Notes: generated from the letters alone by a model not told the origin. A stretch of DNA of 64,000 nucleotides from an uncultured Slackia sp. (GCA_934661005.1 CAKUIK010000003.1:998-64997), one strand, 5' to 3'. Shown: positions 9,044 through 63,599, counted from the first letter of the stretch. A program made the numbers and translations.

Positions 9044-9394
9044 ATGAGCGAAGAGCTGTATGTTGACGGACTGGGGCTGGCCCCCGGAGTCATGGAGACC
9101 ATCGTCGCGATCGCGGCCAAAGAGGTTGAGGGCGTTGCCAGCGTTGGCTCGTCTACGTTCACGGGCCTGCGTTCCCGCTTCGCCGCAAAGCCGGCTGGCC
9201 AGGGCATCGATGTGAGCATGAACGAAGAGCAGGGCGTCGATGTCGCCGTGCATATCGACGTGTTCTACGGCAAGCCCATTCCGCAGGTTGCCGAAGCCGT
9301 TCGCCAAACCGTCGCCGATGCCGTGGCAACGCAGGTCGGCTTCACCGTGTCGTCGGTCGATGTCTATGTCGACGGCATTCGTTTCAACAACTAG
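9044..9394 (+). CDS. Asp23/Gls24 family envelope stress protein
   Basis: LAPGVMETIVAIAAKEVEGVASVG...VDVYVDGI. Conserved position upstream of nusB. Confidence 0.85.
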   Translation: MSEELYVDGLGLAPGVMETIVAIAAKEVEGVASVGSSTFTGLRSRFAAKPAGQGIDVSMNEEQGVDVAVHIDVFYGKPIPQVAEAVRQTVADAVATQVGFTVSSVDVYVDGIRFNN

Positions 9395-38807: not shown

Positions 38808-40115
38808 GTGTCGCAATTGAGCGATCTTGGCAAGGAAGCCAAGCATGACTTCGACGAAGTGTCCGAATCGAAGAAAGATTTGCCCTGGTACAAGCGACTT
38901 TCGCTCACCACGTGGATTTTCATCGCATTGGCCTTGGGCGTTGTGGCCGGCATTGCGCTTCAGGGCAATGCTGAGTTTGCCACGACGTATATCAAGCCGC
39001 TCGGCACCATTTTCTTGAACCTCATCAAGATGATCGTTGTGCCGTTGGTCATTTTTACCATGACCGCTGGCGTCATCTCGCTGTCTGATATCAAGCGCGT
39101 TGGCGCTATCGGCGGCAAGACGATTGTCTACTACCTCGCCACCACGGCGTTTGCCATCATCATCGGTTTGGTTATGGCGAATATTCTCAACGTTGGCGGC
39201 GGATACAGCCTGCCCGCCGAGGAGCTTTCGTATGAAGCGAAGGAAGCGCCTTCGTTCATCGATACGATTGTGAACATTTTCCCCGCGAACGTCATTCAGC
39301 CTATGGCCGACGCCACGATGCTCCAGGTTATCGTGATTGCCCTCGTCTTCGGCTTCGGCATTATGGCCGCCGGCAAGAAGGCCCAGCCTGTTGCTGACCT
39401 CGTGAATAGCATGAGCGAAGTATGCATCAAAATCATGCACGGCATCATCTGCTTTGCGCCCTTTGGCGTCTTCGGCCTTATCACGCCTGTTATTGCGAGC
39501 AACGGCCCCGATATTTTGCTGCCGCTGCTGAAGCTGATTGTGGTTGCATACCTCGCCATGATTCTGCATATGGTGGTCGTCTACTCCGGCCTGGTGAAGA
39601 TTCTTGCCAACGTGAGCCCCATCCGCTTCTTTAAAGAGCAAATGTCGGCCATGGTGTTCGCGTTCGCTTCCGCTTCTTCGGTAGGCACGCTGCCTGTGAA
39701 CATGCAGTGCTCCAAGAAGCTCGGCGTTTCCAATGAGGTTTCGAGCTTCGTTTTGCCGCTGGGTGCCACCATCAACATGGATGGCACCTCAATTTACATG
39801 GGTGTGTGCTCCATCTTTATCGCCCAGGTGTTCGGCATCGATTTGACCATTAGCCAGCAGTTCACCATCGTGCTTACCGCCGTGCTTGCCTCCATCGGCA
39901 CCGCCGGTGTTCCCGGTTCGGGCATGATCATGCTTGCTATGGTGCTCCAGTCGGTTGGCTTGCCGGTCGAGGGCATTGCCCTTGTCGCGGGTGTCGACCG
40001 TATCCTCGATATGATGCGCACCACCGTCAACATCACTGGCGACCAGAGCTGCGCCGTATGCGTTGATGCCATGGAGCGCCGCAAGGCCGAGCGCAAGGCC
40101 GCGAAGGCGGCATAG
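38808..40115 (+). CDS. Dicarboxylate/amino acid:cation (Na+/H+) symporter family transporter (DAACS)
   Basis: FLNLIKMIVVPLVIFTMTAGV...SASSVGTLPV...GATINMDGTSIYMG...RTTVNITGD. Confidence 0.88.
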   Translation: MSQLSDLGKEAKHDFDEVSESKKDLPWYKRLSLTTWIFIALALGVVAGIALQGNAEFATTYIKPLGTIFLNLIKMIVVPLVIFTMTAGVISLSDIKRVGAIGGKTIVYYLATTAFAIIIGLVMANILNVGGGYSLPAEELSYEAKEAPSFIDTIVNIFPANVIQPMADATMLQVIVIALVFGFGIMAAGKKAQPVADLVNSMSEVCIKIMHGIICFAPFGVFGLITPVIASNGPDILLPLLKLIVVAYLAMILHMVVVYSGLVKILANVSPIRFFKEQMSAMVFAFASASSVGTLPVNMQCSKKLGVSNEVSSFVLPLGATINMDGTSIYMGVCSIFIAQVFGIDLTISQQFTIVLTAVLASIGTAGVPGSGMIMLAMVLQSVGLPVEGIALVAGVDRILDMMRTTVNITGDQSCAVCVDAMERRKAERKAAKAA

Positions 40116-42266: not shown

Positions 42267-42428
42267 GTTGCCGAATATCAAGCTCCCTTCACGGGGGCTT
42301 TTTTACTATGAAATCACGTAGAAATTAGGTGGGGAAACGTGAGGAAATTGCAATTCTCGAATGGCATATGCGCGCGCTGACTTTCATAATGCTGGGCTTG
42401 TTGGGCTATGCGAGGAAAGGAGCGCGGC

Positions 42429-43328
42429 GTGATTGAGTCGAATGCCCGTGTCGGTTTCGTTGGCGCAGGCAAGGTAGGCGTGGCGCTCGGGGAGCTGTTC
42501 CGGGGCTGCGGTATCGCGGTTTCTGGATACGCCTCGTTGCTGGCGTGCGATGCTCAGTCGGCGGCAAAGAAGACGTCATCTGTTGCTTTTGACAATGCTG
42601 CCGATGTAATTGAAGCGTCCGACGTGATTTTCTTCACGGTGCCCGATGGCGAGATTTCAAACGCATGGAACAGCCTCGTGGCTTCATATGGGGCTGCGGC
42701 GGCCGATGCGTTGTTCGGCAAAATCGTGTGCCATTGCTCGGGAACTTTGCCCGCTGCCGCATTAACTGACGCGGCGGAATATGGCGCGCATGCCGCTTCG
42801 GTGCATCCGCTTTTCGCCATCTCGGGCGGGGGAAGCGCCCAGGCGAAAATCGGTTCCGCGCTCTTCACGCTCGAGGGCGACGCGTCGGCTCTTGCGGCGG
42901 TGTCGACCCTGCTCGATGCATGCGAGGTTCGCCATAGGCAGATCGCTTCGTGCGATAAGCCGCTCTATCATGCGGCGGCGGTGTGCGCGAGCAATTTGGC
43001 TGTGGGGCTTTTCGCGAGTGCGCAGACGATGCTCGAGCGATGCGGCTTCGATGCCGACGAGGCTCGCGGTGCGCTGCGCCCGCTGTTTGTGGGCAATTGC
43101 GAATCTATTGCCGAGCGAGGCCCCGTCGATGCCCTTACGGGTCCCATCGAGCGCAACGACAGCGAAACCGTGATGGGCCACTTGCTGGCGTTTCGCGAAG
43201 ATCCGACGCTGCTGAAAGAACGCGACGCTTATACCGCTCTTTCGCGCGTCGTGGTCGAAATTGCCGCCGCGAAGCACCCCGAGCGGGATTACTCGCAGCT
43301 CGCAGAGATTCTGAGGGCCGCTCGATAA
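42429..43328 (+). CDS. Rossmann-fold plus DUF2520-type oxidoreductase, putative ketopantoate reductase (PanG-like)
   Basis: [15 protein letters not shown] dinucleotide fold. C-terminal helical domain. Sits immediately upstream of panB-panC. AGGAAAGGAG RBS before GTG 42429. Confidence 0.55.
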
Positions 43329-43399
43329 GCGCTGAAAACGACAAGAGGGAAGGAAGGGCCAGGGCGCGTGTCCCGACCCGAATAAGGAAGGCGAATATC

Positions 43400-44227
43400 A
43401 TGAAGAATACTGCCGCAACGTTTGCCGCCGCCAAGGCGAAAGGCGAAAAGCTCTCGATGCTCACCGCATATGACTATTCTACGGCGAAACTCGAAGACGA
43501 GTCGGGCATCAACGGCATTCTGGTTGGCGACTCGCTGGGCAACGTTGTGCTTGGCTATGAGGATACCGTTTCGGTAACCATGGAAGACATGATTCACCAC
43601 GGCGCAGCTGTTGCTCGTGGCGCGAAAAACGCTCTTGTCGTTGTCGATATGCCTTTCATGAGCTACGAAGTGACCGTCGAGGAAGCCGTGCGCAATGCGG
43701 GTCGTCTTATGAAAGAGGGCCGCGCGGGTGCCGTGAAACTCGAGGGCGGTGTGCGCGTTGCTGAGCAGATTCGCGCCATCGTGAAGGCCGGCATTCCCGT
43801 TATGGGCCATATTGGCCTTACGCCTCAGTCGATTAACGTTTTCGGCGGCTTCAAAGTGCAGGGTAAAAGCGAGGAGGCCGCCCGCGCTCTGCTCGCCGAT
43901 GCTAAGGCGGTTGAGGAAGCCGGTGCATTCGCCGTTGTAATTGAGGCGGTTCCCGCCGCCCTTGCCCAAATGATTACCGACGCCGTTTCGATTCCGACCA
44001 TCGGCATTGGTGCGGGCGCTGGTTGCGACGGCCAGATTCTCGTTTATCAGGATATGCTCGGCATGTTCAGCGACTTCACCCCGAAATTCGTGAAGCGCTA
44101 CGCAAATGTGGGCGAAGTCATGCGTGAGGCGTTTGCGAATTACGCAGCCGAGGTCGCATCGGGCGCATTCCCCACTGAAGAGCACACCTATAAAATCAAG
44201 GACGACGTGCTCGAGAAGCTGTACTAA
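43400..44227 (+). CDS. panB: 3-methyl-2-oxobutanoate hydroxymethyltransferase
   Basis: [15 protein letters not shown]...[17 protein letters not shown]...[10 protein letters not shown]...VKLEGG. Confidence 0.93.
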
Positions 44228-44325
44228 AGAAAACGGCGCAGTGGCCCGAAGGAAAGCGTGTCGCTGCGATTTGATAGATTGCCAGGAGCGCGCATGCGCT
44301 CAAACATCCCGAAGAAAGAAGAACG

Positions 44326-45171
44326 ATGAACATCGCTTATACCGTGGAAGACGTGAAGTCGCAGGTTCGCGAATGGAAGAAGGAAGGCCTTACCGTTGGC
44401 CTCGTGCCCACCATGGGTTATTTGCACGAAGGCCACGAGAGCTTGATCAAGCGTGCCGTCGCGGAAAACGATCGCGTCGTGGTGAGCGTGTTTTTGAACC
44501 CCACGCAATTTGCCCCCAACGAAGACCTCGCGAGCTATCCTCGCGATTTCGAAGCCGATACGAAACTGTGCGAAGGGGCTGGCGCGGCTCTGGTTTTCCA
44601 TCCCGAGCCGTCTGAGATGTACGCGGAGGACGCGTGTACGTTCGTCGACATGAACGCCGTCACCAAGGAACTGTGCGGAAAGAGCCGTCCGATTCACTTC
44701 CGCGGCGTGTGCACCGTTGTGAACAAGCTCATGAATATTTCCATGGCCGATCGCGCGTACTTCGGCCAGAAAGACGCGCAGCAGCTCGCCGTTATTCGTC
44801 GCATGGTTCGCGATTTGAATATGAACGTTGAAGTTGTGGGCTGCCCCATCATTCGCGAGGCTGACGGTTTGGCGAAAAGCTCGCGCAACACCTACCTTTC
44901 CGAAGAAGAGCGTAAGGCGGGTCTGGTTTTGTCGCAGGCCGTGAAGTTGGGCCAGAAGCTTGTCGCCGAAGGCGAGAAGTCTGCTGCTGCGGTCACCGGC
45001 GCTATGAGCGAGCTCATTTCTGCGGAACCTCTCGCAAAGATTGACTACGTCTCTATGGTATCGTGGGATTCCATCGAGCCCGTCGAAACCATTGAAGGCC
45101 CTGTGCTCGTTGCCATGGCGGTCTACATTGGCAAAACCCGCCTGATTGACAACTTCATTTACGAAGGATAA
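44326..45171 (+). CDS. panC: Pantoate--beta-alanine ligase
   Basis: VGLVPTMGYLHEGHESLIKRA...VSVFLNPTQFAPNEDL...FGQKDAQQLAVIRRMV. Confidence 0.93.
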   Translation: MNIAYTVEDVKSQVREWKKEGLTVGLVPTMGYLHEGHESLIKRAVAENDRVVVSVFLNPTQFAPNEDLASYPRDFEADTKLCEGAGAALVFHPEPSEMYAEDACTFVDMNAVTKELCGKSRPIHFRGVCTVVNKLMNISMADRAYFGQKDAQQLAVIRRMVRDLNMNVEVVGCPIIREADGLAKSSRNTYLSEEERKAGLVLSQAVKLGQKLVAEGEKSAAAVTGAMSELISAEPLAKIDYVSMVSWDSIEPVETIEGPVLVAMAVYIGKTRLIDNFIYEG

Positions 45172-45180
45172 TCTTTAGAT

Positions 45181-45337
45181 TTCGCTCGGAACGCGCCGAG
45201 CGGCTCCGCTTGGAGCCACGGCTCGCTACCGTTCGCTTCGCTTACTATGCGCTCGCCTGGCTGCGCTTAGCTTTGGACTAAAGCAAATTTGAGCGCAGAC
45301 GGCTCCAATCAGAGCCGCCCGGCGCGTTCCGAGCGAA
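45181..45337 (-). repeat. Structured intergenic element, copy C (opposite orientation)
   Basis: 26-nt inverted arms 45181-45206 / 45312-45337 (25/26). On the minus strand it has inner hairpin CTGCGC...GCGCAG and core GAGCGCATAGTAAGCGAAGCGAACGGTAGCGAGCCGTGG. Confidence 0.6.
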
Positions 45338-45534
45338 GCATTCCCGAACTTGTAAAAAACGATTCGGTTCGAATAGATGTCAGCGAGCGGAATCGTGGTG
45401 TGCCGAATCGGCGTGAAGCCAAGCCGCCGCGTATTGAAAATACGCAAGGTGAAGGCTGAACGTCGAGGCGGCCGCCACAATTCCGCGCAGCGTCGAGCCG
45501 TATCGTTTGCCGAAAGGCAAACGAAAGGATACTA

Positions 45535-45927
45535 ATGCAACTCAATATGCTCAAGGGAAAAATTCACCGTGCTACCGTTGTTCAGGCCGAGCTTGACTAC
45601 GTGGGCAGCATCACCATCGATGAAGACCTCATGGAGGCTTCGGGCATTCTGGAATACGAGAAGGTCCAAATCGTCGATGTGAACAACGGCCAGCGCTTCG
45701 AGACGTATGTCATTGCCGGTGAAGCCGGTTCTGGCATGATTTGCCTGAACGGCGCTGCGGCGCGCAACGTTTCAGTGGGCGACAAGGTCATCATCATGTG
45801 CTATTGCCAGATGTCTCCCGAGGAAGTGTCCTCCAATCCGCCGCGCGTCGTGTTCGTCGACGACGACAATAAGATCGCGCGTGTGACGCGTTACGAAAAA
45901 CATGGTCTTCTGAAAGACATGGAATAG
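45535..45927 (+). CDS. panD: Aspartate 1-decarboxylase
   Basis: [29 protein letters not shown]...NGAAAR. Confidence 0.93.
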
Positions 45928-46000
45928 CAGACGGGCCGCGAAAGCGGCCTTCGTTGTTTATAATGCAGTGGTTTGAAAGAGTCGAATGGGGGAGTTCGAT

Positions 46001-46687
46001 ATGGTGAATCGCCAGCGCGATTTGGAGGGCAAGCGGGTTTTGGTAACCGCGGGTCCCACGCAGGAGGCCATTGATCCGGTGCGCTTTATTTCCAATCACT
46101 CTACGGGCCGCATGGGCTACGCCATCGCTGAAGTGGCGCGCGACCGCGGCGCGCAGGTGGTGCTTGTAAGCGGACCTGTTTCGCTCGAGGCGCCCGAAGG
46201 CGTCGAGCTCGTGAACATCGTGAGCGCGCAAGACCTTTTCGATGCCGTGAGTTCTCGCTATCTCGAATGCGACGCCGTTATCGCCGCTGCTGCGGTGGCC
46301 GACTATCGCCCGAAAACGGTTGCCGATAATAAGATGAAGAAAAAAGACGGCGACCTGTCTATCGAACTCGAGCGCACGCCCGATACGCTTTCCTGGCTTG
46401 GCGCACATCGCGTGGCCGAGCAGCGTTTGTGCGGCTTCTCGATGGAAACGTGCAATGTACTCGAAAACTCGCGCGGCAAACTTACGCGCAAGAATGTCGA
46501 TATGATTTGCGCGAACAGCTTGCGCGAGGAAGGCGCTGGCTTCGGCACGGCGACGAATCATCTTACGCTCATCTCTCGAGAGCGCGAGGTCGACCTGCCC
46601 ATGCTTTCGAAGGCCGATGCGGCAGACGCGCTTTTGACGGAGCTGTTCTCGCTTGAGCCGCTTCCTGCATCGACGGAAGGGGAGTAG
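46001..46687 (+). CDS. coaB: Phosphopantothenate--cysteine ligase, stand-alone CoaB domain (no CoaC domain)
   Basis: GKRVLVTAGPTQEAIDPVRFISNHSTGRMGYAIAEVA...DYRP....KIKK pattern. 228 aa. Confidence 0.85.
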   Translation: MVNRQRDLEGKRVLVTAGPTQEAIDPVRFISNHSTGRMGYAIAEVARDRGAQVVLVSGPVSLEAPEGVELVNIVSAQDLFDAVSSRYLECDAVIAAAAVADYRPKTVADNKMKKKDGDLSIELERTPDTLSWLGAHRVAEQRLCGFSMETCNVLENSRGKLTRKNVDMICANSLREEGAGFGTATNHLTLISREREVDLPMLSKADAADALLTELFSLEPLPASTEGE

Positions 46688-46689
46688 TC

Positions 46690-47457
46690 ATGCTGCTTAC
46701 GGTTGATATTGGCAACACCAATGTGGTGATGGGCCTTATGCCTACGCGCGGCGAGCTTGCAAGCCAACTGCGTTTTCCCACCGACAAACGTCGCACGGTG
46801 CGCGAATTCATGGATGGCTTCGAGGCGCTCGTTGCCATGCACGGCTTCGATTTCTCCGATGTGACCGGCGCTGTTGTCTCTTCCGTCGTGCCAGAGCTCA
46901 CGGAATCGGTTGTAGCTTCGGTTCGCGCGAAAACGAACCTCGAGCCGCTTGTGGTGAACTACCAAATGAATTTGGGGTTCTCCATCGACATGGACACGCC
47001 CGAGCGTTTGGGCGTCGACATGATCGCCGATGCGGCGGGCGCCGTGAACGATTACGACGGCGCGCTCGCGATTTTCGACATGGGCACGGCCACCACGTGC
47101 TCGGTGCTCACGAGCGATCGCACGTATATCGGCTCCATCATTTATCCTGGCGTGGTTATTTCGCAGGACGCGCTCACTGCTCAGTGTTCGCAGTTGCCGT
47201 TTATCAAGTTTGAAAAGCCGAAAGGCCTTATTGGCAAGAACACCGTCGAGTGCATGTATTCGGGTGTGCTGTATTCCAATGCGGCCACCATCGATGGCCT
47301 GATCGACCGCATTGCCGATGAACTGGGCGAGCCGGTGACCGCCATTGCGACGGGCGGTGTGAGCCGCATGATCGTTCCCGCATGCCGCCGCGAAATCGTG
47401 CATGACCCGAACCTGTTGCTGAAGGGGCTCTGGGACCTCTATAAGTTGAATGCCTAA
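46690..47457 (+). CDS. coaX: Type III pantothenate kinase
   Basis: MLLTVDIGNTNVVMGL...GVDMIADAAGA...IFDMGTATT...ATGG. Confidence 0.9.
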   Translation: MLLTVDIGNTNVVMGLMPTRGELASQLRFPTDKRRTVREFMDGFEALVAMHGFDFSDVTGAVVSSVVPELTESVVASVRAKTNLEPLVVNYQMNLGFSIDMDTPERLGVDMIADAAGAVNDYDGALAIFDMGTATTCSVLTSDRTYIGSIIYPGVVISQDALTAQCSQLPFIKFEKPKGLIGKNTVECMYSGVLYSNAATIDGLIDRIADELGEPVTAIATGGVSRMIVPACRREIVHDPNLLLKGLWDLYKLNA

Positions 47458-47621: not shown

Positions 47622-48248
47622 ATGAATATCGTGTTGTTGGGCGCCCCGGGCGCCGGCAAGGGTACGCAGGCCGCCAAGCTGGTTGAGGAATTCGCCACGC
47701 CTCACATTTCCACGGGCGACATTCTGCGCGCCGCGGTGAAGAACCAGACCGAGCTCGGCAAGAAGGCCAAGGGCTACATGGATGCGGGCGATCTGGTTCC
47801 CGATAGCCTGATCATCGACCTCATGGACGAGCGCCTGCGCGAGCCCGACTGCGAGAAGGGCTTCATTCTCGACGGCTTCCCGCGCACCACGGCTCAGGCT
47901 GTGGCCCTCGACGACATGCTGGCCCGCCTCGAGTGCCCGCTCGACGCAGCGCTGCTCGTCGACGTTGACCCTGAGGTTATCATCAAGCGCCTCACCGAGC
48001 GTCGCTGCTGCAAAGAATGCGGCTACATCGGCACCGCTGCCGATGCCACCTGCCCGAAATGCGACGGCGAGATGTATCAGCGCGACGACGACAACGAGGC
48101 CACGGTTCGCAATCGCCTCGACGTCTACGCCAAGAGCACGAGTCCGCTTATCGACTATTACAAGGGCAAGGGCCTGCTGAAGAGCGTCGACGGCGATCGC
48201 CCGGTCGATACCGTCTACGCCGACGTGAAAGCTCTGCTCGGCCTGTAA
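47622..48248 (+). CDS. adk: Adenylate kinase (zinc-lid type)
   Basis: MNIVLLGAPGAGKGTQA...ISTGDILRAAV...GFILDGFPRT...C-x2-C...C-x2-C lid. Confidence 0.96.
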   Translation: MNIVLLGAPGAGKGTQAAKLVEEFATPHISTGDILRAAVKNQTELGKKAKGYMDAGDLVPDSLIIDLMDERLREPDCEKGFILDGFPRTTAQAVALDDMLARLECPLDAALLVDVDPEVIIKRLTERRCCKECGYIGTAADATCPKCDGEMYQRDDDNEATVRNRLDVYAKSTSPLIDYYKGKGLLKSVDGDRPVDTVYADVKALLGL

Positions 48249-48300: not shown

Positions 48301-48326
48301 GCGCCTCCTTCGGGAGGCGCTTTTTA
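48301..48326 (+). terminator. Rho-independent terminator after adk
   Basis: GCGCCTCC-ttcg-GGAGGCGC followed by TTTTTA. Confidence 0.85.
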
Positions 48327-48351
48327 TGATTCGAACGAATTGACGAAAACC

Positions 48352-48615
48352 CTAATCGCCGCTGCGATCCATATCATTTTTTAAGTTGTCAATCGAAGCG
48401 ATAATCTCTTTTCCTGCAGCATAAAGGAGCCTTCCATCTTCGGTCGGCTCAATTCTCCCATTTCGTCGTAGGACGAGAGTGGCATTGGTTGTTTTCTCTA
48501 GCGATCTTACGGCTTTCGATATGCCTTCGGGACTCATGTAATGCTTGTCTGCAGCCGCGGCATAGCTGCCCTCGTCAATCGCCGAAATAAAGAAACGTAC
48601 ATGGTCGGTGTTCAA
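48352..48615 (-). pseudogene. LysR-family regulator fragment (N-terminal HTH domain only, 87 aa)
   Basis: VRFFISAIDEGSYAAAADKHYMSPEGISKAVRSLEKTTNATLVLR is a LysR HTH. No effector-binding domain is present. The gene ends 26 nt from the island edge. Confidence 0.6.
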
Positions 48616-48814
48616 TAGGGCCTCCTAAAGTTGATTTTGACATGGCCCATGCGACTCTTCGATTATAGAAGAGTCGCCTGTATCGATGGATTGAATTCGG
48701 CGCATGGCTCATATGCTGTTCGAACGGTTCGCCTTTGCGTTTCTCCAAACGGTTTGTCCGTTCGCCCAAACGTTTGGTTCGCTTCGTAGAACGATTTCTG
48801 CCTTTATGATTCTT

Positions 48815-48844
48815 GTAGGGAAATCGCCATGGAGATTTCCCTAC
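48815..48844. promoter_or_regulatory. 11-bp-arm inverted repeat upstream of the secreted-protein gene
   Basis: GTAGGGAAATC-gccatgga-GATTTCCCTAC. Confidence 0.4.
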
Positions 48845-48871
48845 CGCATGGTTAACAAGAAAGGGGTTACG

Positions 48872-49294
48872 ATGACACAATTGAAGAGGCGGGCTATGGG
48901 TTTTGTTCTTTGCGCTGGTTTTGTTCTTGCGGCATTGCCCGCAACTATTGCCTATGCAGGCAATAGCGCCGATACGCCTTACATTTTTAACTTAGCATAC
49001 AATGCAAGTGCCGATACCGAGTGGAGGGCGAAGTACGACCCCACTTCATCCTATATTAACTGCCAGAGTAACACTGGCGTGACATATGTCCAATCAAACG
49101 GCGCTCAAAAGGGTTCCGTCTACACATGGGGTCCGACGTATCCTGTTGGAATTGGGTCTCAATACCTTATTAATTATGTCTGGGAAAATCGTCCCGAGAA
49201 AGATGTGTCGGCATACTGCTTCCTTCGTTTTCATAATTATGACTACAACAAAGTTGTGAGGACCCAGGGTCTATGGAGTCCCGATAGCGTTTAG
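48872..49294 (+). CDS. Small secreted protein of unknown function (signal peptide, 2 Cys)
   Basis: MTQLKRRAMGFVLCAGFVLAALPATIAYAGNS is a signal peptide. AGAAAGGGG RBS. Confidence 0.6.
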   Translation: MTQLKRRAMGFVLCAGFVLAALPATIAYAGNSADTPYIFNLAYNASADTEWRAKYDPTSSYINCQSNTGVTYVQSNGAQKGSVYTWGPTYPVGIGSQYLINYVWENRPEKDVSAYCFLRFHNYDYNKVVRTQGLWSPDSV

Positions 49295-49350
49295 GCTATT
49301 GGTGCGGGCGTGGGCCACCGCGCCCGCTCGTTTGAAGAACGGGGTGAAGC

Positions 49351-50013
49351 GTGGTATCGGATAGAAAGAGAAAAACAGGGCTGAGAATTCTCCTTCTCGT
49401 CGTCATTCTTGTGTTCTTTTTCGCTTCGGCGGGAAGGATTAAAGGGGTAAACGAGTCAGTGTCGTCTTTGGATTCAGTCGCGGTTTCTGGAAGCTATGAA
49501 GCTGGGCTCGATTTGAAAGAGTATGTTGAGGACGAGAAGATCTCCCTGTCTGGCATGACCGTCGACGCGCAGCTTATTCCCGAAGGAATAACGTATCTTG
49601 TATCTAACGCGCGCATCGAGTCGGAGTCTGACGCTATGGAGGACCATCCGGGGTGGACGGGCGTAACGTATAGCTCAGAATACTTGAAATACGATGAGCC
49701 ACTTTTCTTGTTGGTCGACATAACTATAGAGAACAATACTGGAGATGCGTATCAGCCCGTTTGGCTTAATTTGGAGGCTGGGTCGTGGTCTACGGTGCGT
49801 TATCCCGACCTTATGCTTTTGGAAAACAACGCCAAGGACAAAGCGGATTTTATCGTTGCGGCGGGCGAAACCAGGGTGTTTACGATTCCTTATGAACTGT
49901 GGGAGCCAACTTTTTCTAAAACGCAATGGACCCATGTTTACGCTTTGGACTATTCGCTGACCTGTTTGGACTATCCACGTAAAGTCTTGGTTCATCTTGC
50001 GGTGGGTGATTGA
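49351..50013 (+). CDS. N-terminally membrane-anchored protein with beta-rich extracytoplasmic domain, unknown function
   Basis: RILLLVVILVFFFASAG is the anchor. Its stop overlaps the next gene start. Confidence 0.55.
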   Translation: MVSDRKRKTGLRILLLVVILVFFFASAGRIKGVNESVSSLDSVAVSGSYEAGLDLKEYVEDEKISLSGMTVDAQLIPEGITYLVSNARIESESDAMEDHPGWTGVTYSSEYLKYDEPLFLLVDITIENNTGDAYQPVWLNLEAGSWSTVRYPDLMLLENNAKDKADFIVAAGETRVFTIPYELWEPTFSKTQWTHVYALDYSLTCLDYPRKVLVHLAVGD

Positions 50014-50852
50014 CGTTGCTTATTTTAGCGGTACTTAAAGAGGAATTGCATCGGGCTTTCTGCAATTGGAGGCTTATTGTAGCTTTGCTTGCCGGAATCT
50101 TGATTGTAGGGCTTCATATAATTACGTGCGTCATTCCCGAAGCCAGCAATCAGGAACTATATTTAACGACGACTGGGTACCCCCTGTCCGTTCACAATCG
50201 CTGGATTGGGGGATGGGGCGGGTCGATATTTCCAATGCTTTTCTTCTCGCTTTTGCCGCTTATTGTGTGCATCCCTTTTTCCGATTCCCTTTATATGGAC
50301 TGTCGAAGCGGATATGTGGCGCAGGTCGTGTCGCGCGCATCGAGGTTGAGCTATATTGGAGCAAAATACTTCGCGAGCTTTGCGATTGGCATCGTGGCTT
50401 CGCTCGCCCCCTTGCTTTTTGATTTTTATCTAACGGCTCTTTGGCTGCCATTGACCGCCCCCGATTCCTCGGCTGGTGTATACCCAATTTTTGCATACTC
50501 ACTCTTTAGTGATTTGTTTTATGACAATATTGTGCAATATTATGCAATTTATGCGGCCGTTATTGGCGTGACTTCTGGTCTCCTCGCATGCTTCCCCTTG
50601 GCTCTTGGCTTTGTTTTGCCGAATCGAGGATTGGTTACATGCTCGTCGTTCATGATATGCCTTATTCTGTACTTCATATTTGGTTCGGGCGATTCTGCTT
50701 GGCTTGTCCCTGCGATATTCATGAGGCCTGATCAGCCTGTATGGGGGTATTCCTTCGCACAGATATTGTGTTTTTTAGGCGGGCTGAGTCTAATGGAAGG
50801 GGTCATGCTTGTTATCGAGGGCAGACGGCTCGGACTGAAGGCTTCAGAATGA
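50010..50852 (+). CDS. Polytopic membrane protein, ABC-2-type permease-like
   Basis: 280 aa with about 6 TM helices. ATGA overlap with the next gene. Confidence 0.6.
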   Translation: MTLLILAVLKEELHRAFCNWRLIVALLAGILIVGLHIITCVIPEASNQELYLTTTGYPLSVHNRWIGGWGGSIFPMLFFSLLPLIVCIPFSDSLYMDCRSGYVAQVVSRASRLSYIGAKYFASFAIGIVASLAPLLFDFYLTALWLPLTAPDSSAGVYPIFAYSLFSDLFYDNIVQYYAIYAAVIGVTSGLLACFPLALGFVLPNRGLVTCSSFMICLILYFIFGSGDSAWLVPAIFMRPDQPVWGYSFAQILCFLGGLSLMEGVMLVIEGRRLGLKASE

Positions 50853-52279
50853 CGAGGTTGCGAGATTCGCTCTCCAGCGATTTTTTCCCCGAACAGCGTT
50901 TTGTTCGAATGGTGAGTGCTTCGTTCGCGGTGATCGTCGTCTCGTGCGCGATTAATTCGAGATTAATAGATGGCCTGTTTCGCGGTATCGGAATCAGGGT
51001 GACGCTGTTGGATTATTTGCTTTTCTCGACAGTTCCTCCTTTTGGGTGCATCCCGATCGCTTGGTTTGTCTTGGGGCCGATTGCAATCTTGCTGTTTAAT
51101 TATTCAACGCGATACCTGTACTCAATTCAGGGACGCATTCGTTTTTGTCGCACGACTTGTCGCGAAATGGCTATTTTCACTATTGCGTACGGAGTAATAC
51201 TGCTTGTTGTCGTCGAATTCTTCGTTGCGGCAATGTTTGTGGCGGCATGGCGACGTTATTCATTGCATGGATTCTTTCGAGACGATTCCTTCATGGGATC
51301 TTACTGTCCTTCTGCAGCTGAACACTCGTGGGTGTTCGTCACTATGGTTTTTGTAGCGGATGCGATATGTATTGTTGCTTTGCAGCTCATAGCATTTTTG
51401 GGGTTTAGGCATCTTTTTAAAAAGCCGACAGTGGGATTTACTCTTTGTATAGGCGCGGATTTTGTTATCTGCTACTTGATGCAAATGTTCGGCACGTATT
51501 GCAGCGGCTATGAGGCTGTTGCGTCTGGTTCGGGCGCAATTCTATTTTTTATTGAGGTGCTAGGTGTGGGGTTGCTCTGCCGCGCAGGCTTCTCTGCGTG
51601 TCGCTTTATGAAGAGTGCGGAGGGATTGTCTATGGCGAAAGTCGAAATAAAAGAGCTATCGAAGATAAAACGTGGTAAAGCGTTGCTGCGAGATATCAAT
51701 GCAACATTTGATAGCGGCAAATGTTATGAGCTTCGTGGCGCGAACGGGTCTGGTAAAACAATGCTTCTCTGCGCAATTGCGGGGTTGCTGAAGCCGACAA
51801 CGGGATGTGTGGTGATTGACGGCGAGATTCTTGGGCGTGATATTGAATTTCCTCAGAGCGTGGGAATGCTTATTGAGAAGCCAGGTTTCATCCCGTCTTA
51901 CACCGGCTTCGATAATCTAAAATTACTAGCCTCGATAAGGGGGGCTGCCGGCGGCGAGGACATACGAGACGCGATGCGCAAGGTTGGGCTTAATCCGGAT
52001 GATGAAAGGAAGTACAAGGCTTATTCGCTGGGTATGAAACAGCGTCTAGGCATTGCGTGCGCCATTATGGAAAAGCCCCAAATTGTGTTGCTGGATGAGC
52101 CGCTTAATGCCCTTGACGAGGCGGGCCCGGGTATTGTCTGCGACGTTATCGAGAGATGCAAACGAAATGGGGCGGTTGTGGTTGTCGCAAACCATGAGAA
52201 AGGTGCGCTCGACTCAGTAGTTGATGAGGCAATGCTAATGCGCGAGGGGCAAATATGTCCGGTCGATGGGAGCGACTGA
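50849..52279 (+). CDS. Fusion of N-terminal polytopic membrane domain and C-terminal ABC ATPase
   Basis: ~260 aa of TM helices, then GANGSGKT (Walker A), SLGMKQRLG (signature), IVLLDEP (Walker B), all in one open frame. An internal start at MAKVEIKEL cannot be excluded. Confidence 0.7.
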   Translation: MTRLRDSLSSDFFPEQRFVRMVSASFAVIVVSCAINSRLIDGLFRGIGIRVTLLDYLLFSTVPPFGCIPIAWFVLGPIAILLFNYSTRYLYSIQGRIRFCRTTCREMAIFTIAYGVILLVVVEFFVAAMFVAAWRRYSLHGFFRDDSFMGSYCPSAAEHSWVFVTMVFVADAICIVALQLIAFLGFRHLFKKPTVGFTLCIGADFVICYLMQMFGTYCSGYEAVASGSGAILFFIEVLGVGLLCRAGFSACRFMKSAEGLSMAKVEIKELSKIKRGKALLRDINATFDSGKCYELRGANGSGKTMLLCAIAGLLKPTTGCVVIDGEILGRDIEFPQSVGMLIEKPGFIPSYTGFDNLKLLASIRGAAGGEDIRDAMRKVGLNPDDERKYKAYSLGMKQRLGIACAIMEKPQIVLLDEPLNALDEAGPGIVCDVIERCKRNGAVVVVANHEKGALDSVVDEAMLMREGQICPVDGSD

Positions 52280-53124
52280 TGGTGAAGCGTGGCGTCGTAC
52301 GGTGCTTGGGTCGCATCGTCTGGTACGACGTATGCCGAAGCATTCCCCAATGCATCCCGCTATATTGCGTTTCGTTTGCCGTTCTTGCGGTTCTTGCTGC
52401 ACGATATGATGCAAATGTCGAGCTTATAGGTCTTGCCCCGTCTCCCTCAGAGGTGCTGGCATCGTTTCTTTTGGGATCGAACCCGTTTGACCCAGACGCC
52501 GGAAGCGTTTTTGTCGTGCCGCCCACATGGTTTGCTCTTAATGTCTCCGTTGCTTGCCTCGTTGGTTTTTATCCTTGTTCTGATTATCGCGCGAGCGGAT
52601 GCCAAGTCATTTCTCGATGTCGTTCGACGCAACTTTGGTTTTTGGGCAAAGAGATATGGGCTATGCTGGTTGTATTTATCCTGTATGGCGGATTGCTGAT
52701 TCTATGTGCTGTTTTTGGCGCCGGTAACGGAGGCCTGGATTCAGAAGTCCGTATGAATGTGGTCGCTTTTGACTGGAATGGTGAATCTGTTGATTTAAAC
52801 GTGCTCGAAGCGCTGTGTGTGCAAATAAGCGTTTCGATTGCTCTGAGTATAGTTCAAGTGGCGATCTCGTTGTTGACGGGACCGCCTGTTGCCATGGGCG
52901 TTATCGTTGCGTATTTCATTGCTTCGTGCTTCTTCGGGGGCATTCCGTTTGTTGCCGATTGCGGAATGATTCTACGGTCGTCTTTTTGCGCTCCCAATGG
53001 ATATGATTTCTTGTCGTGTTTGTCGATGTGCCTGTTATCCGCAGCCGTGATAATAGTTACATCGGCAATCGTCCTGCGTAACGTTGATTTTGGGCTGAAT
53101 CTGAAAAACGTCGATACCGAGTGA
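52279..53124 (+). CDS. Polytopic membrane protein, ABC-2-type permease-like
   Basis: 281 aa, multi-TM. TGATG junction with the upstream ATPase gene. Confidence 0.55.
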   Translation: MVKRGVVRCLGRIVWYDVCRSIPQCIPLYCVSFAVLAVLAARYDANVELIGLAPSPSEVLASFLLGSNPFDPDAGSVFVVPPTWFALNVSVACLVGFYPCSDYRASGCQVISRCRSTQLWFLGKEIWAMLVVFILYGGLLILCAVFGAGNGGLDSEVRMNVVAFDWNGESVDLNVLEALCVQISVSIALSIVQVAISLLTGPPVAMGVIVAYFIASCFFGGIPFVADCGMILRSSFCAPNGYDFLSCLSMCLLSAAVIIVTSAIVLRNVDFGLNLKNVDTE

Positions 53125-53155
53125 GTGGATTGTTCCTTTCGGGAGGCGCTTTTTT

Positions 53156-55399
53156 GTGGTGCGCATGGGGGCGCGGGCTCGAGCGTTCATTCGGCGCGTG
53201 ACCTTGGGTATAATGCGCTCCATGCATGCTTTCTTTACATTACTTGGCGAGTTCATCGCCACTCATCACGCGCGGTTGCGACACTTCGCGAAGGTTGCCT
53301 GCGTTATTTTGCTGTGCGCCGCGGCGCTTGAAGTCGTGGTGTTCAACTTCAACCATTGGCGCAGCCTCACCTGGCAGTCCATCACGGTGAACGAGCAGTC
53401 GAACCTGCAGGAAACCGCCGATGAGCGCCTGCGTATCTCGGCCATCGACAACACCATCGAGTTCGATTACGTCGGCGTGCCCGTGCATAATATCAAGCTC
53501 GATTTCTCGGGGAACCAGTCGGCGCAAAACGTGCCCGTGAAAATCTGGTTCACCGACGACGCGCACTCGACGTATTTCGACGATGACGAATACACGGCAG
53601 GCGTGCCGGTGACGTATGTCTCCACCAACAACGACGAGAGCAAATACCTCAACATCAATGCGTCGGGCTCGGTGTACAAGCTGCGCATTCAGGTGGGCGT
53701 CGACGACGGGGAAACGAAGGTCACCTACCCGCTGTATGTGTCGAAAATCGTGCTCAATGCGCCTGAGCCGTTCCATTTCAGCAATGAGCGCTTTGTGTTC
53801 GCGGCGTGCATCATGGCCCTCATATACGCGTTTCGCCCCAAGTCGAGCCTGTATCGCACGCAGTTGCGCGAGCACCCGCGCCGCACGAAGATCGCCGTCA
53901 TTGGCGTGGCTGCGGTCGAGATTTGGGTGGGCGCGTCGTTTCTGCTGTTCGGCACGAACCTCGTGGGCGTTGCCACACAGCATTACAACTCGGGCTCGTG
54001 GGATGGCGTGAGCGTTATCAACGTGTTCGAATGCGGCGGCGAAAATGCGCAGCAATACGCCGAGCTCGCAAAATCCATGACGCAGGGCAAGCTGTATTTG
54101 GAAGAAGAACCGCCCAACTGGTTGCAGAATATGGACGACCCGTACGATCGCGGCGCCCGTGACCAGCTGGTGAAAGAAACCGGCGAGAACTACTTGTGGG
54201 ATACCGCCTATTACGAGGGCCATTACTACGTGTACTTCGGCGTGGTGCCGGTATTGCTGTTCTACCTGCCGTTCTACCTTGCTACGGGAGCGAATTTCCC
54301 CACGGCGATTGGCGTGCTCATCGGCATGGTGTTTTTCATCGCGGGCCTCTCGGCGCTGCTCGACCGCTTCGCCCGCTACCACTTCAAGCGCATGACGACC
54401 GGCGTGTTCCTGCTACTGCAAATCGCGATTGTGACGTGCTGCGGCATGCCGTATTTGCTGAAGTTCCCCACGTTCTATTCGCTGCCCATTATGCTGGCGC
54501 TCGCGTTTTCGGTATGGGGCTTGTATTTCTGGATGGTGGGCCGCAGCCATAAACGCCCCGAGGGCTTCTATTTGGCGGGCTCGCTTTGCATGGCGCTCGT
54601 GGTGGGGTGCCGCCCGCAGCTCGTGTTGCTGAGCTTCTTGGCGTTTCCGCTGTTCTGGCGCATGTACATCACCGAAGGCCGCATTCGCACCGCGGCGGGC
54701 GCTCGTCAGTTCGCGTGCCTTATCGCACCCTATATCGTGGTGTGCGCGGGCATCATGTGGTACAACAAGGCGCGCTTTGGCAGCCTGTTCGATTTCGGCG
54801 CGAACTACAACCTCACGGTAAACGACATGACGAAGCGCGGCATGGCGGTGGGCCGCATTGCGCCTGCGTTGTTCGCATATTTGTTCCAAACCCCCGCGAC
54901 CACGGGCGTGTTCCCTTATTTGCAGGCCGTCACGTTCGACACCACGTATTTGGGACAAACGGTGAAGGAAGTCACGTTCGGCGGCATTTTCGCCGTGCTT
55001 CCCATTTTGTGGGTGTTGCCGTTTGCCCGCCGCATTCTGCAAATGCGCATTAGCCAGCGCAAGACGCGCACGGTGGCAGGCGTAATCGGCGTGCTCATCG
55101 GCATCGGCGTGCTCATCGCTGTGGCCGATGCGGAAATGGCGGGCATTCTTCAGCGCTACTTCGCCGACTTCAGCATCATGTTCCTTATGGCGGCGGTGTT
55201 GCTGCTGTTCATTGTGAACGAAAACATCGAAAACGGCTCGAAGGCCCACGCGGTGTTCGTGCGCGTGCTGCCGGTTGCGGTTGCGGTTGGCGTGGCCTAT
55301 ACGGTGCTCTTGTGCATTACGGCGGAAACTGGATGGGTTTCGGATGCCTACCCGTGGGCATACCAGGGGTTGTTGGAAACGTTCCAGTTTTGGACGTAA
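53156..55399 (+). CDS. Large polytopic membrane protein with N-terminal extracytoplasmic domain; tentatively a GT-C-fold glycosyltransferase
   Basis: ~747 aa with more than 10 TM helices. WDTAYYEGHYYVYFGVVPVLLFYLP is a PMT/ArnT-like loop region. A GtrA gene follows. The start is uncertain (ATG 53213 is an alternative). Confidence 0.5.
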   Translation: MVRMGARARAFIRRVTLGIMRSMHAFFTLLGEFIATHHARLRHFAKVACVILLCAAALEVVVFNFNHWRSLTWQSITVNEQSNLQETADERLRISAIDNTIEFDYVGVPVHNIKLDFSGNQSAQNVPVKIWFTDDAHSTYFDDDEYTAGVPVTYVSTNNDESKYLNINASGSVYKLRIQVGVDDGETKVTYPLYVSKIVLNAPEPFHFSNERFVFAACIMALIYAFRPKSSLYRTQLREHPRRTKIAVIGVAAVEIWVGASFLLFGTNLVGVATQHYNSGSWDGVSVINVFECGGENAQQYAELAKSMTQGKLYLEEEPPNWLQNMDDPYDRGARDQLVKETGENYLWDTAYYEGHYYVYFGVVPVLLFYLPFYLATGANFPTAIGVLIGMVFFIAGLSALLDRFARYHFKRMTTGVFLLLQIAIVTCCGMPYLLKFPTFYSLPIMLALAFSVWGLYFWMVGRSHKRPEGFYLAGSLCMALVVGCRPQLVLLSFLAFPLFWRMYITEGRIRTAAGARQFACLIAPYIVVCAGIMWYNKARFGSLFDFGANYNLTVNDMTKRGMAVGRIAPALFAYLFQTPATTGVFPYLQAVTFDTTYLGQTVKEVTFGGIFAVLPILWVLPFARRILQMRISQRKTRTVAGVIGVLIGIGVLIAVADAEMAGILQRYFADFSIMFLMAAVLLLFIVNENIENGSKAHAVFVRVLPVAVAVGVAYTVLLCITAETGWVSDAYPWAYQGLLETFQFWT

Positions 55400-63540: not shown

Positions 63541-63599
63541 TCGAGGGCTGTGTCCTGCCTTGGTCGGAAACCAAGGCACTCTGTCAAAGGAGAATACCA

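Follow-up and report, generated by a model that had tools for sequence, protein, structure and literature searches.

A cargo-only island of foreign composition lies in the adk terminator of a gut Slackia species

RESULTS AND DISCUSSION

A block of foreign composition bounded by a split terminator

We analyzed a stretch of 64,000 nucleotides from an uncultured Slackia sp. (GCA_934661005.1 CAKUIK010000003.1:998-64997), hereafter called the window, in which a block of six genes lies between adk, encoding adenylate kinase, and a gene encoding a polytopic membrane protein of 747 amino acids (aa). This block, hereafter called the island, lies in the terminator of adk and is bounded on both sides by a short direct repeat derived from that terminator (Table 1). 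The adk terminator itself is intact. It was the top terminator-like site in a terminator scan, and its hairpin folds at -18 kcal/mol (z -3.07).

Table 1. Features of the adk locus and of the island, in window positions
Feature	Position	Strand	Evidence or remark
adk (adenylate kinase)	47622..48248	+	Pfam ADK, E 1.7e-57; host gene whose terminator is the insertion target
Intact adk intrinsic terminator	48301..48325	+	GCGCCTCC-TTCG-GGAGGCGC then T5; hairpin 48301-48320
Left direct-repeat copy	48306..48325	+	TCCTTCGGGAGGCGCTTTTT; same as the empty-site sequence
Inserted DNA proper, 4808 bp	48326..53133	.	Between the repeat copies
LysR-family regulator fragment	48352..48615	-	Pfam HTH_1, E 8.9e-14; cut after 87 aa
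Divergent control region, 256 nt	48616..48871	.	Promoter-like site and two palindromes
Secreted 140-aa protein, DUF2712	48872..49294	+	Pfam DUF2712, E 2.1e-4
N-terminally anchored 220-aa protein, DUF5028-related	49351..50013	+	Precomputed weak Pfam DUF5028 mark
Polytopic permease, 280 aa	50010..50852	+	About six hydrophobic segments
Membrane domain (~260 aa) fused to ABC ATPase, 476 aa	50849..52279	+	Pfam ABC_tran, E 2.9e-27, residues 280-420
Second polytopic permease, 281 aa; last island gene	52279..53124	+	Stop codon 9 nt from the right repeat
Right direct-repeat copy	53134..53155	+	TCCTTTCGGGAGGCGCTTTTTT; extra T in the former loop, no 5' arm
Host polytopic membrane protein, 747-aa open reading frame	53156..55399	+	Ancestral downstream neighbor of adk

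The two repeat copies share an exact 17-mer, TTCGGGAGGCGCTTTTT, at 48309-48325 and 53138-53154 (repeat family D6). When up to two mismatches were allowed, these two matches remained the only ones in the 64-kb window; the mean in shuffled sequences was 0.03, and none of 100 shuffles gave two. Including the TCC that precedes the loop, the repeat measures 20 nt on the left and 21 nt on the right, the sole difference between the copies being an extra T at the inner edge of the right one. The right copy, without its 5' arm, has no significant fold (z 0.03 and +1.23) and was not called in the terminator scan; we therefore rejected an independent terminator at the right end.

The island also stands apart in composition. 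Followed along the window, the GC content was between 0.45 and 0.53 within the block and between 0.57 and 0.63 outside, with overall values of 0.487 for the island and 0.585 for the rest of the window. The G+C content at third codon positions (GC3) was 0.48 to 0.54 in all six island genes, compared to 0.68 to 0.83 in twelve host genes. Because four of these host genes encode membrane proteins, the compositional break cannot be put down to hydrophobic proteins alone.

Pfam and NCBIfam scans of the six island products detected no integrase, transposase or relaxase, and none was found among the scanned large open reading frames of the window. The island is cargo only. As no tRNA gene is present in the window, integration of the tRNA type was rejected.

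Relatives carry the exact empty site

To place the locus, species-representative genomes were scanned with the 747-aa protein, which yielded 80 loci, nearly all of them from Eggerthellaceae and the best ones from Slackia. The source is a species of Slackia (Eggerthellaceae) near S. isoflavoniconvertens. About 70 loci of Eggerthellaceae have adk immediately before the 747-aa gene, an order that, judging from this comparison, is ancestral for the family. A first reading of the window, made from its sequence only (the sequence-only reading), had pointed out that the usual continuation of the cluster after adk (map-infA-rpmJ-rpsM) is missing. The genes are indeed absent, but their absence has no connection with the island, since it reflects the family-wide order in Eggerthellaceae.

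In a Slackia metagenome-assembled genome (MAG) from a sister species that is about 90% identical in both flanks (L009), the spacer reads ...CCCACTGCGCCTCCTTCGGGAGGCGCTTTTTTGTGGTGCGCATGGGG. This junction is an exact fusion of the window's left flank, a single copy of the repeat and the right flank: the hairpin is followed by T6 and then by GTGGTGCGCATGG. The same empty junction was found in L034, which is about 80% identical, while S. isoflavoniconvertens DSM 22006 (L022) and L010 have no island and a different spacer. The island was absent from the adk site in all other Eggerthellaceae loci examined (~70 loci). Since the empty site contains a single copy of the repeat, insertion of the island duplicated 20 bp of the target. 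The restored empty site of the window would have the sequence GCGCCTCCTTCGGGAGGCGCTTTTTTGTGGTGCG, and a circular junction, in which the right end of the island, one repeat and the left end are joined, would read GTGGATTGTTCCTTTCGGGAGGCGCTTTTTATGATTCGAACG.

These results are in good agreement with the remaining claims of the sequence-only reading, which had described an AT-richer block inserted into the adk terminator, a duplicated half-terminator without its 5' arm, the lack of a recombinase and a content consisting of a LysR fragment, a secreted protein, an anchored protein and an unusual ATP-binding cassette (ABC) system. The comparison of GC content and codon usage proposed there set the island apart, and the gene content is as it had been described. 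Relatives without the block exist, the adk terminator is directly followed by the downstream gene in L009 and L034, and the right repeat is not a hairpin. With an empty site, a foreign composition and flanking direct repeats, the island is horizontally acquired, and we regard it as virtually certain that the block is a recent horizontal insertion.

Other cargo was found in the spacer between adk and the membrane protein gene. L026 (3186-9970) carries genes for a molybdopterin oxidoreductase, a ferredoxin, a chaperone and a two-component system, L036 (2926-9958) an FAD reductase gene and a LuxR gene, and L073 (8173-9940) a gene for a protein of 499 aa of unknown function. Neither a recombinase nor flanking repeats were detected for these three insertions. 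The spacer looks like a recurrent landing place. Several of the MAG records (L010, L034 and L081-L085) are titled Subdoligranulum, Bacteroidaceae, Christensenellaceae, Succinivibrio, Prevotella, Sphaerochaetaceae or Dialister, yet they contain Eggerthellaceae-like adk/membrane-protein loci, and these bins are probably mislabeled or contaminated.

The island is fixed in the sampled strains and nearly devoid of diversity

We then looked up exact matches to four proteins, namely Adk, the island protein in which a transmembrane (TM) domain is fused to an ABC ATPase (TM-ABC), the 747-aa protein and SecY, and read 24, 23, 23 and 23 contigs, respectively. These came from Hadza gut metagenomes and others (ERZ27... 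and MERR22 sample names). The island was at the same site in every one of them, with identical junctions, a constant right repeat and no other context, and no island-free strain of the species was present among these contigs. In metagenome contigs from JGI there were 0 matches to the empty-site junction and 0 to the right-end junction, which would also reveal a circular form. As the latter junction is contained in every island-bearing strain, the species is apparently missing from this collection.

Among distinct strain sequences, nucleotide diversity was 0.045% in the island versus 0.77 to 0.79% in the 5 to 10 kb on each side, that is, about 17 times lower. Only 6 sites segregated in the 4.8-kb island, compared to 18 to 70 per kb outside. 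The block of low diversity extended from ~47.5 to ~54.5 kb and thus comprised, in addition to the island, most of adk and the first 1.1 to 1.4 kb of the downstream gene. Flanks more diverse than the accessory insert that they surround are the signature of a recent arrival followed by spread to different backgrounds. We infer from this that a gene-specific sweep took place recently, through homologous recombination in the flanks, as the extent of the block also suggests. Spread through flank homology would mean that the island needs no mobility gene. Nothing suggests that the island is mobile now, as it occupies one site in all sampled strains, without a second copy.

The island carries a broken LysR gene and an operon for a secreted protein and an ABC system

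The LysR fragment at the left end retains the helix-turn-helix (HTH) domain and part of the linker helix, the substrate-binding domain being gone. NCBIfam LysR models cover it only at profile positions 1-86 of about 300, and the combination of HTH_1 with a C-terminal substrate-binding domain that defines a full-domain LysR was not found. No relative sharing words with the fragment was present in any other cluster of the protein collection. The control region that separates the fragment from the operon contains a promoter-like site (TTGACA-18-GATTAT, 48637-48666) and near-perfect palindromes at 48648-48680 (I10) and 48815-48844 (I11). The second of these, GTAGGGAAATCGCCA/TGGAGATTTCCCTAC, lies 28 nt before the start of the secreted-protein gene, and short CAAACG-containing repeats are found between the two. 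Palindromes and repeats may represent candidate operator sites. No motif of the region upstream of the operon was conserved in related cassettes.

The first product of the operon has a signal peptide, with a hydrophobic N-terminal segment at residues 8-26. Its match to DUF2712 is marginal (22.3 bits for a gathering cutoff of 22); relatives that are 58 to 70% identical bear a precomputed mark for this family (PF10916) and share with it two invariant cysteines and an invariant C-terminal W-S-P-D-S. The anchored protein has a TM segment at residues 10-28 and is 37 to 41% identical to DUF5028 proteins of L089, L091 and L126, hmmscan giving no significant match. The 280-aa permease is 46 to 53% identical to the permeases of related cassettes (L089, L091 and L118), the L089 counterpart carrying a faint DUF2705 mark, and the 281-aa permease is 24 to 28% identical to the last cassette gene of the relatives. 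For TM-ABC, the best NCBIfam model was the lantibiotic-protection ABC ATPase TIGR03740, with 137.5 bits for a cutoff of 309.75. Its sequence matches in the PDB were ABCA-type proteins, NosF and a bacterial ABC ATPase of 290 aa (6xjh), which place it in the ABCA/NosF-like class of ABC ATPases. The same fusion occurs in relatives of 471 to 473 aa. The transporter would have three membrane components and be ABC-2/type V-like. In a low-coverage Hadza contig (L114:17311-18691), the TM-ABC gene was called as two pieces of 342 and 137 aa, which is either a frameshift or an assembly error.

The layout recalls that of a bacteriocin with its immunity genes. We tentatively suggest, at somewhat less than even confidence, that the cargo resembles a secreted antagonistic protein together with the system for its export or for self-protection. 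PADLOC gave only generic ATPase matches, searches of PDB sequences with the secreted, anchored and 747-aa proteins returned nothing useful, and a full-text literature search for DUF2712, DUF5028 and DUF2705 found no paper. As the operon lacks its own terminator, its transcripts probably extend into the 747-aa gene.

Related cassettes occupy other chromosomal sites

In the protein collection searched, there was no near-identical copy of the island elsewhere. Outside its own cluster, TM-ABC had a best match of 39% identity over its full length and of 56% over the ATPase domain alone, and the best match of the secreted protein was 70% identical. The 56% match, an abundant ATPase of 278 aa, was rejected as a relative of the cassette: it is a lone gene in a spoVG-pth-mfd context, presumably from a Firmicute.

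The gene set of the island, in the order secreted protein, anchored protein, permease, TM-ABC (fused or split) and permease, recurred at 24 to 70% protein identity in no fewer than four further chromosomal contexts in related bacteria. Slackia genomes other than that of the window (L089, L090 and L091) have the cassette between a DEAD-box helicase gene and an EF-G-like gene. The cassettes of L118-L121 are near efp, with a divergently transcribed LysR gene encoding 182 aa, and those of L116 and L126 adjoin hydrogenase/oxidoreductase genes. The L125 cassette is rearranged, has a full LysR gene (298 aa) and adjoins hipBA. In each case, the GC content of the cassette was lower than that of its surroundings (0.43 to 0.57 versus 0.56 to 0.65). 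No recombinase was found in or abutting these cassettes, except for a copy of IS3, an insertion sequence (IS), beside that of L089; in L091, a gene for an IS481-type transposase is located about 6 kb from the cassette. From these comparisons, a LysR gene appears to be a repeated companion of the cassette family, the copy of the island being broken. Three independent assemblies (L118:1-20, L119:1-20 and L121:1-20; compare L120:94-113) break at the same base, 13 nt past the 182-aa LysR gene, as would be expected if a repeated sequence, for instance an IS, lay next to that LysR gene and had truncated it too.

The L091 cassette is flanked by a direct repeat of 153/154 nt with 94% identity (3819-3971 and 9092-9245). 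It comprises the spacer downstream of the helicase gene together with a bidirectional terminator, as well as the final 61 nt of the EF-G-like gene, which is oriented convergently. Judged by sequence, it represents a second, independent target duplication around a member of the cassette family, which left both neighbors intact as at adk. As it differs from the adk repeat in length and in sequence, it fits neither the fixed-length footprint of a transposase nor a shared att core.

How the island was joined to the chromosome

Little DNA separates the island genes from the repeats: the stop codon of the LysR fragment is 26 nt from the left copy and the last stop codon of the operon is 9 nt before the right copy. 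The related cassettes have sequence downstream of the operon that the island lacks. We found no terminal inverted repeats: local alignment of the island ends gave a score of 7, with shuffled sequences averaging 7.9. At both ends a cassette seems to have been cut at an arbitrary point, and neither end resembles the terminus of an element. Since inverted ends, a transposase and further copies are all lacking, a transposon was rejected.

We favor a scenario in which a cargo-only foreign fragment was inserted once by the host, through illegitimate recombination, and was then spread by homology of the flanks. In the ancestor of a single Slackia species, the fragment would have entered the spacer that separates adk from the membrane protein gene. 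It would have brought along a LysR gene that was broken at one end and all five genes of the operon, the cut lying 9 nt beyond the final stop codon. Both joints would have been made by host replication or repair and not by a recombinase encoded by the element. They would be illegitimate, of the microhomology type, one at the apex of the hairpin and the other at the T-tract of the terminator, and their stagger would have duplicated 20 bp of target, comprising TCC, the loop, the 3' arm and the T-run. In this way adk would have retained an intact terminator and the downstream gene its own promoter, and homologous recombination in the flanking core genes would have carried the island through the species.

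This one-off insertion is preferred to an att/integrase event because both ends look like arbitrary cuts. It is further favored by the lack of inverted ends, of a recombinase and of a second copy, by the position of the extra T in the right repeat, which falls where a TCCTT microhomology joint would lie, and by the different length of the L091 duplication. For the statement as a whole, including the way in which the ends were joined, we put the chances at about even.

Several points weigh against it. No donor was found in which the microhomology of the joints could be checked, the closest relatives of the island proteins being only 39 to 70% identical. Site-specific integration at an att core would likewise produce a 20-bp duplication and spare the terminator of the target, and an illegitimate insertion that duplicates 20 bp has, to our knowledge, no direct experimental precedent in this group. 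Our look-ups with exact proteins may miss island-free strains with other alleles, and the contigs read are metagenome assemblies, i.e., consensus sequences. As for the cargo, its function is read from weak family matches, and the AlphaFold model of the secreted protein was unusable (predicted local distance difference test score of 50.8).

The leading alternative is that the island is a remnant resembling a cis-mobilizable element (CIME), a term used for elements that have lost the genes for integration and transfer but retain attL and attR (PMC5704250, PMC6323972). An integrative and conjugative element (ICE), an integrative and mobilizable element (IME) or a prophage would have used the 20-bp segment as an attB core through a tyrosine recombinase; the integrase, the transfer module and the 3' part of the LysR gene would later have been deleted, leaving attL and attR, which could still be used in trans. 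A direct repeat of 20/21 bp at the 3' end of a conserved housekeeping gene, with the terminator intact, would be typical of such an element. Moreover, the two copies differ on the element-proximal side of the right one, as expected for an arm derived from attP, and the truncated LysR gene indicates that something was lost or cut at the left edge. However, none of about 70 related loci has an integrase-bearing element between adk and the downstream gene, and the three matches to the core in viral contigs all lie within complete, independent terminators. With coding sequence starting 26 nt from the left repeat and ending 9 nt from the right one, there is no non-coding room for arm-type sites, and a deletion that removed the integrase would need to have ended within 26 nt of attL. 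The other cassettes have no recombinase in or abutting them save the IS copy, the L091 repeat (153 nt) is of unrelated sequence, and neither a second site nor an island-free strain was seen among the contigs read. We consider this origin unlikely. The structure is formally also the product of a single crossover, by which a circular fragment carrying the 21-nt sequence TCCTTTCGGGAGGCGCTTTTT would have integrated at the adk terminator in the manner of Campbell. The duplication in L091, which is 153 nt long and includes 61 nt of the 3' end of the neighboring gene, looks like an event of this kind with longer homology, and the 20-mer is a generic strong-terminator sequence that has arisen independently in unrelated phage contigs. 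Yet the donor would need to carry half a terminator without its 5' arm, which is unnatural unless it came from an earlier identical event. In addition, 20 bp is at or below the usual minimal length for efficient RecA-dependent exchange. We thus find such a crossover distinctly unlikely.

Direct repeats of target sequence around an insert would likewise result if a transposase or a casposase-like enzyme had acted in trans on a non-autonomous transposon. This is hardly credible here: one end is a broken gene, terminal inverted repeats, a transposase and other copies are all missing, and a repeat of 20 bp exceeds the usual target duplications, the related event in L091 measuring 153 nt. We attach just as little credence to the idea that the block is ancestral and was lost precisely between the repeats in the relatives, or that the right repeat is the operon's own terminator. 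Recombination between the repeats would yield exactly the empty site that we observed, and the 20-mer can arise independently as a terminator. However, every other lineage examined across the family is in the empty state, the GC3 of the block is far from that of the host, its diversity is ~17 times below that of the flanks, and the right copy is unfolded (z 0.03). Finally, the cassette may represent a mobile module of a new kind, free of any recombinase and inserted with a preference for the hairpins of intrinsic terminators. An activity of the host or one acting in trans would recognize the hairpin and leave duplications of variable length (20 bp at adk and, across a bidirectional terminator, 153 nt in L091), and the cassette would be fixed by the advantage of antagonism or immunity. 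This we judge very unlikely, and we retain the one-off illegitimate insertion followed by flank-mediated spread as our working explanation.

Comparison with known systems

Like the CIMEs of streptococci (ICEberg 2.0; PMC6323972, PMC5704250), the island is bounded by direct repeats 3' of a conserved gene whose function is left intact, and it has no integrase, relaxase or conjugation genes. It differs from them in that our comparisons revealed no cognate ICE or IME using this att core, that there is no room for arm sites, that one end is a broken gene and that excision or a second site left no sign; its repeats, which amount to no more than half of the target terminator, are putative att sites. 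A parallel to the proposed insertion may lie in the transformation of Acinetobacter baylyi, for which de Vries and Wackernagel in 2002 and Huelter and Wackernagel in 2008 reportedly described illegitimate and homology-facilitated illegitimate recombination. Common to both would be an arbitrary fragment with cut genes at its ends, joints at short matches (here proposed) without any enzyme of the element, and a rare one-off event followed by spread through ordinary homologous recombination. In contrast, the island is a natural event in an anaerobic gut actinobacterium and is accompanied by a target duplication of 20 bp.

The classical route for islands without an enzyme of their own is that of integrative mobile elements exploiting Xer (IMEX) and of pdif modules, which are moved by the XerCD recombinases of the host. 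The island has in common with them that it is recombinase-free and bounded by short repeats. However, its repeat does not consist of two inverted 11-bp arms around a spacer of 6 to 8 bp, and it is located beside the ribosomal protein cluster, where the GC skew keeps one direction across the site, and not at the replication terminus. An XerCD/dif-type island was rejected on this architecture and position, no formal dif search having been made. With respect to cargo, the island can be compared to lantibiotic-protection (LanFEG-type) and other ABC-2/type V exporters and to Sec-dependent bacteriocin operons that have an ABC system of their own, such as that of lactococcin 972, its ATPase also matching the lactococcin 972-type model. 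The layout is shared, with a small signal-peptide protein encoded by the first gene, an anchored accessory protein and two permeases of ~280 aa. Unlike LanFEG, however, the island ATPase scores under the curated cutoff and has an extra N-terminal membrane domain of ~260 aa, and the secreted and anchored proteins belong with DUF2712 and are DUF5028-like, respectively.

Overall, this is a clean but fairly ordinary horizontal acquisition. Current views are not overturned by it, since islands without mobility genes and recombination sweeps were both already known. Its value lies in an unusually clean natural record of a gut actinobacterium gaining an operon without mobile-element machinery, a record that holds the exact empty site, both joints, a short duplication sparing both neighbors and the signature of a species-wide sweep. 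It also draws attention to an uncharacterized cassette (DUF2712, DUF5028-like and ABC genes) that moves between chromosomal sites of Eggerthellaceae and is always compositionally foreign. Should this cassette encode an antagonism/immunity pair, it would be relevant to how strains compete in the human gut.

The downstream gene and the surroundings of the island

The 747-aa protein had no family or PDB match. A TATAAT box at 53209-53214 precedes an ATG at 53222 by 7 nt, and the same spacing was found before the orthologs in L009, L010, L022, L026, L034, L036 and L060. This arrangement suggests a leaderless or near-leaderless transcript, and the ATG at 53222, not the listed GTG at 53156, is probably the real start of the gene. 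Directly after the right repeat, GGTGCGCATGG is found at 53158-53168, with no second arm following. It matches 9 of the 11 positions of the XerC-binding arm of the Escherichia coli dif site, probably by chance.

The ribosomal protein cluster of the window is interrupted by other genes. A gene of the sodium:dicarboxylate symporter family (38808-40115) lies between rpmD and rplO, a ketopantoate reductase-like gene, panB, panC, panD, a DFP-family gene and coaX lie between secY and adk (42408-47457), and topA directly precedes rplB. The only Rfam match in the window was an L31-Coriobacteria ribosomal protein leader (RF03128, 44.7 bits) at 63557-63592.

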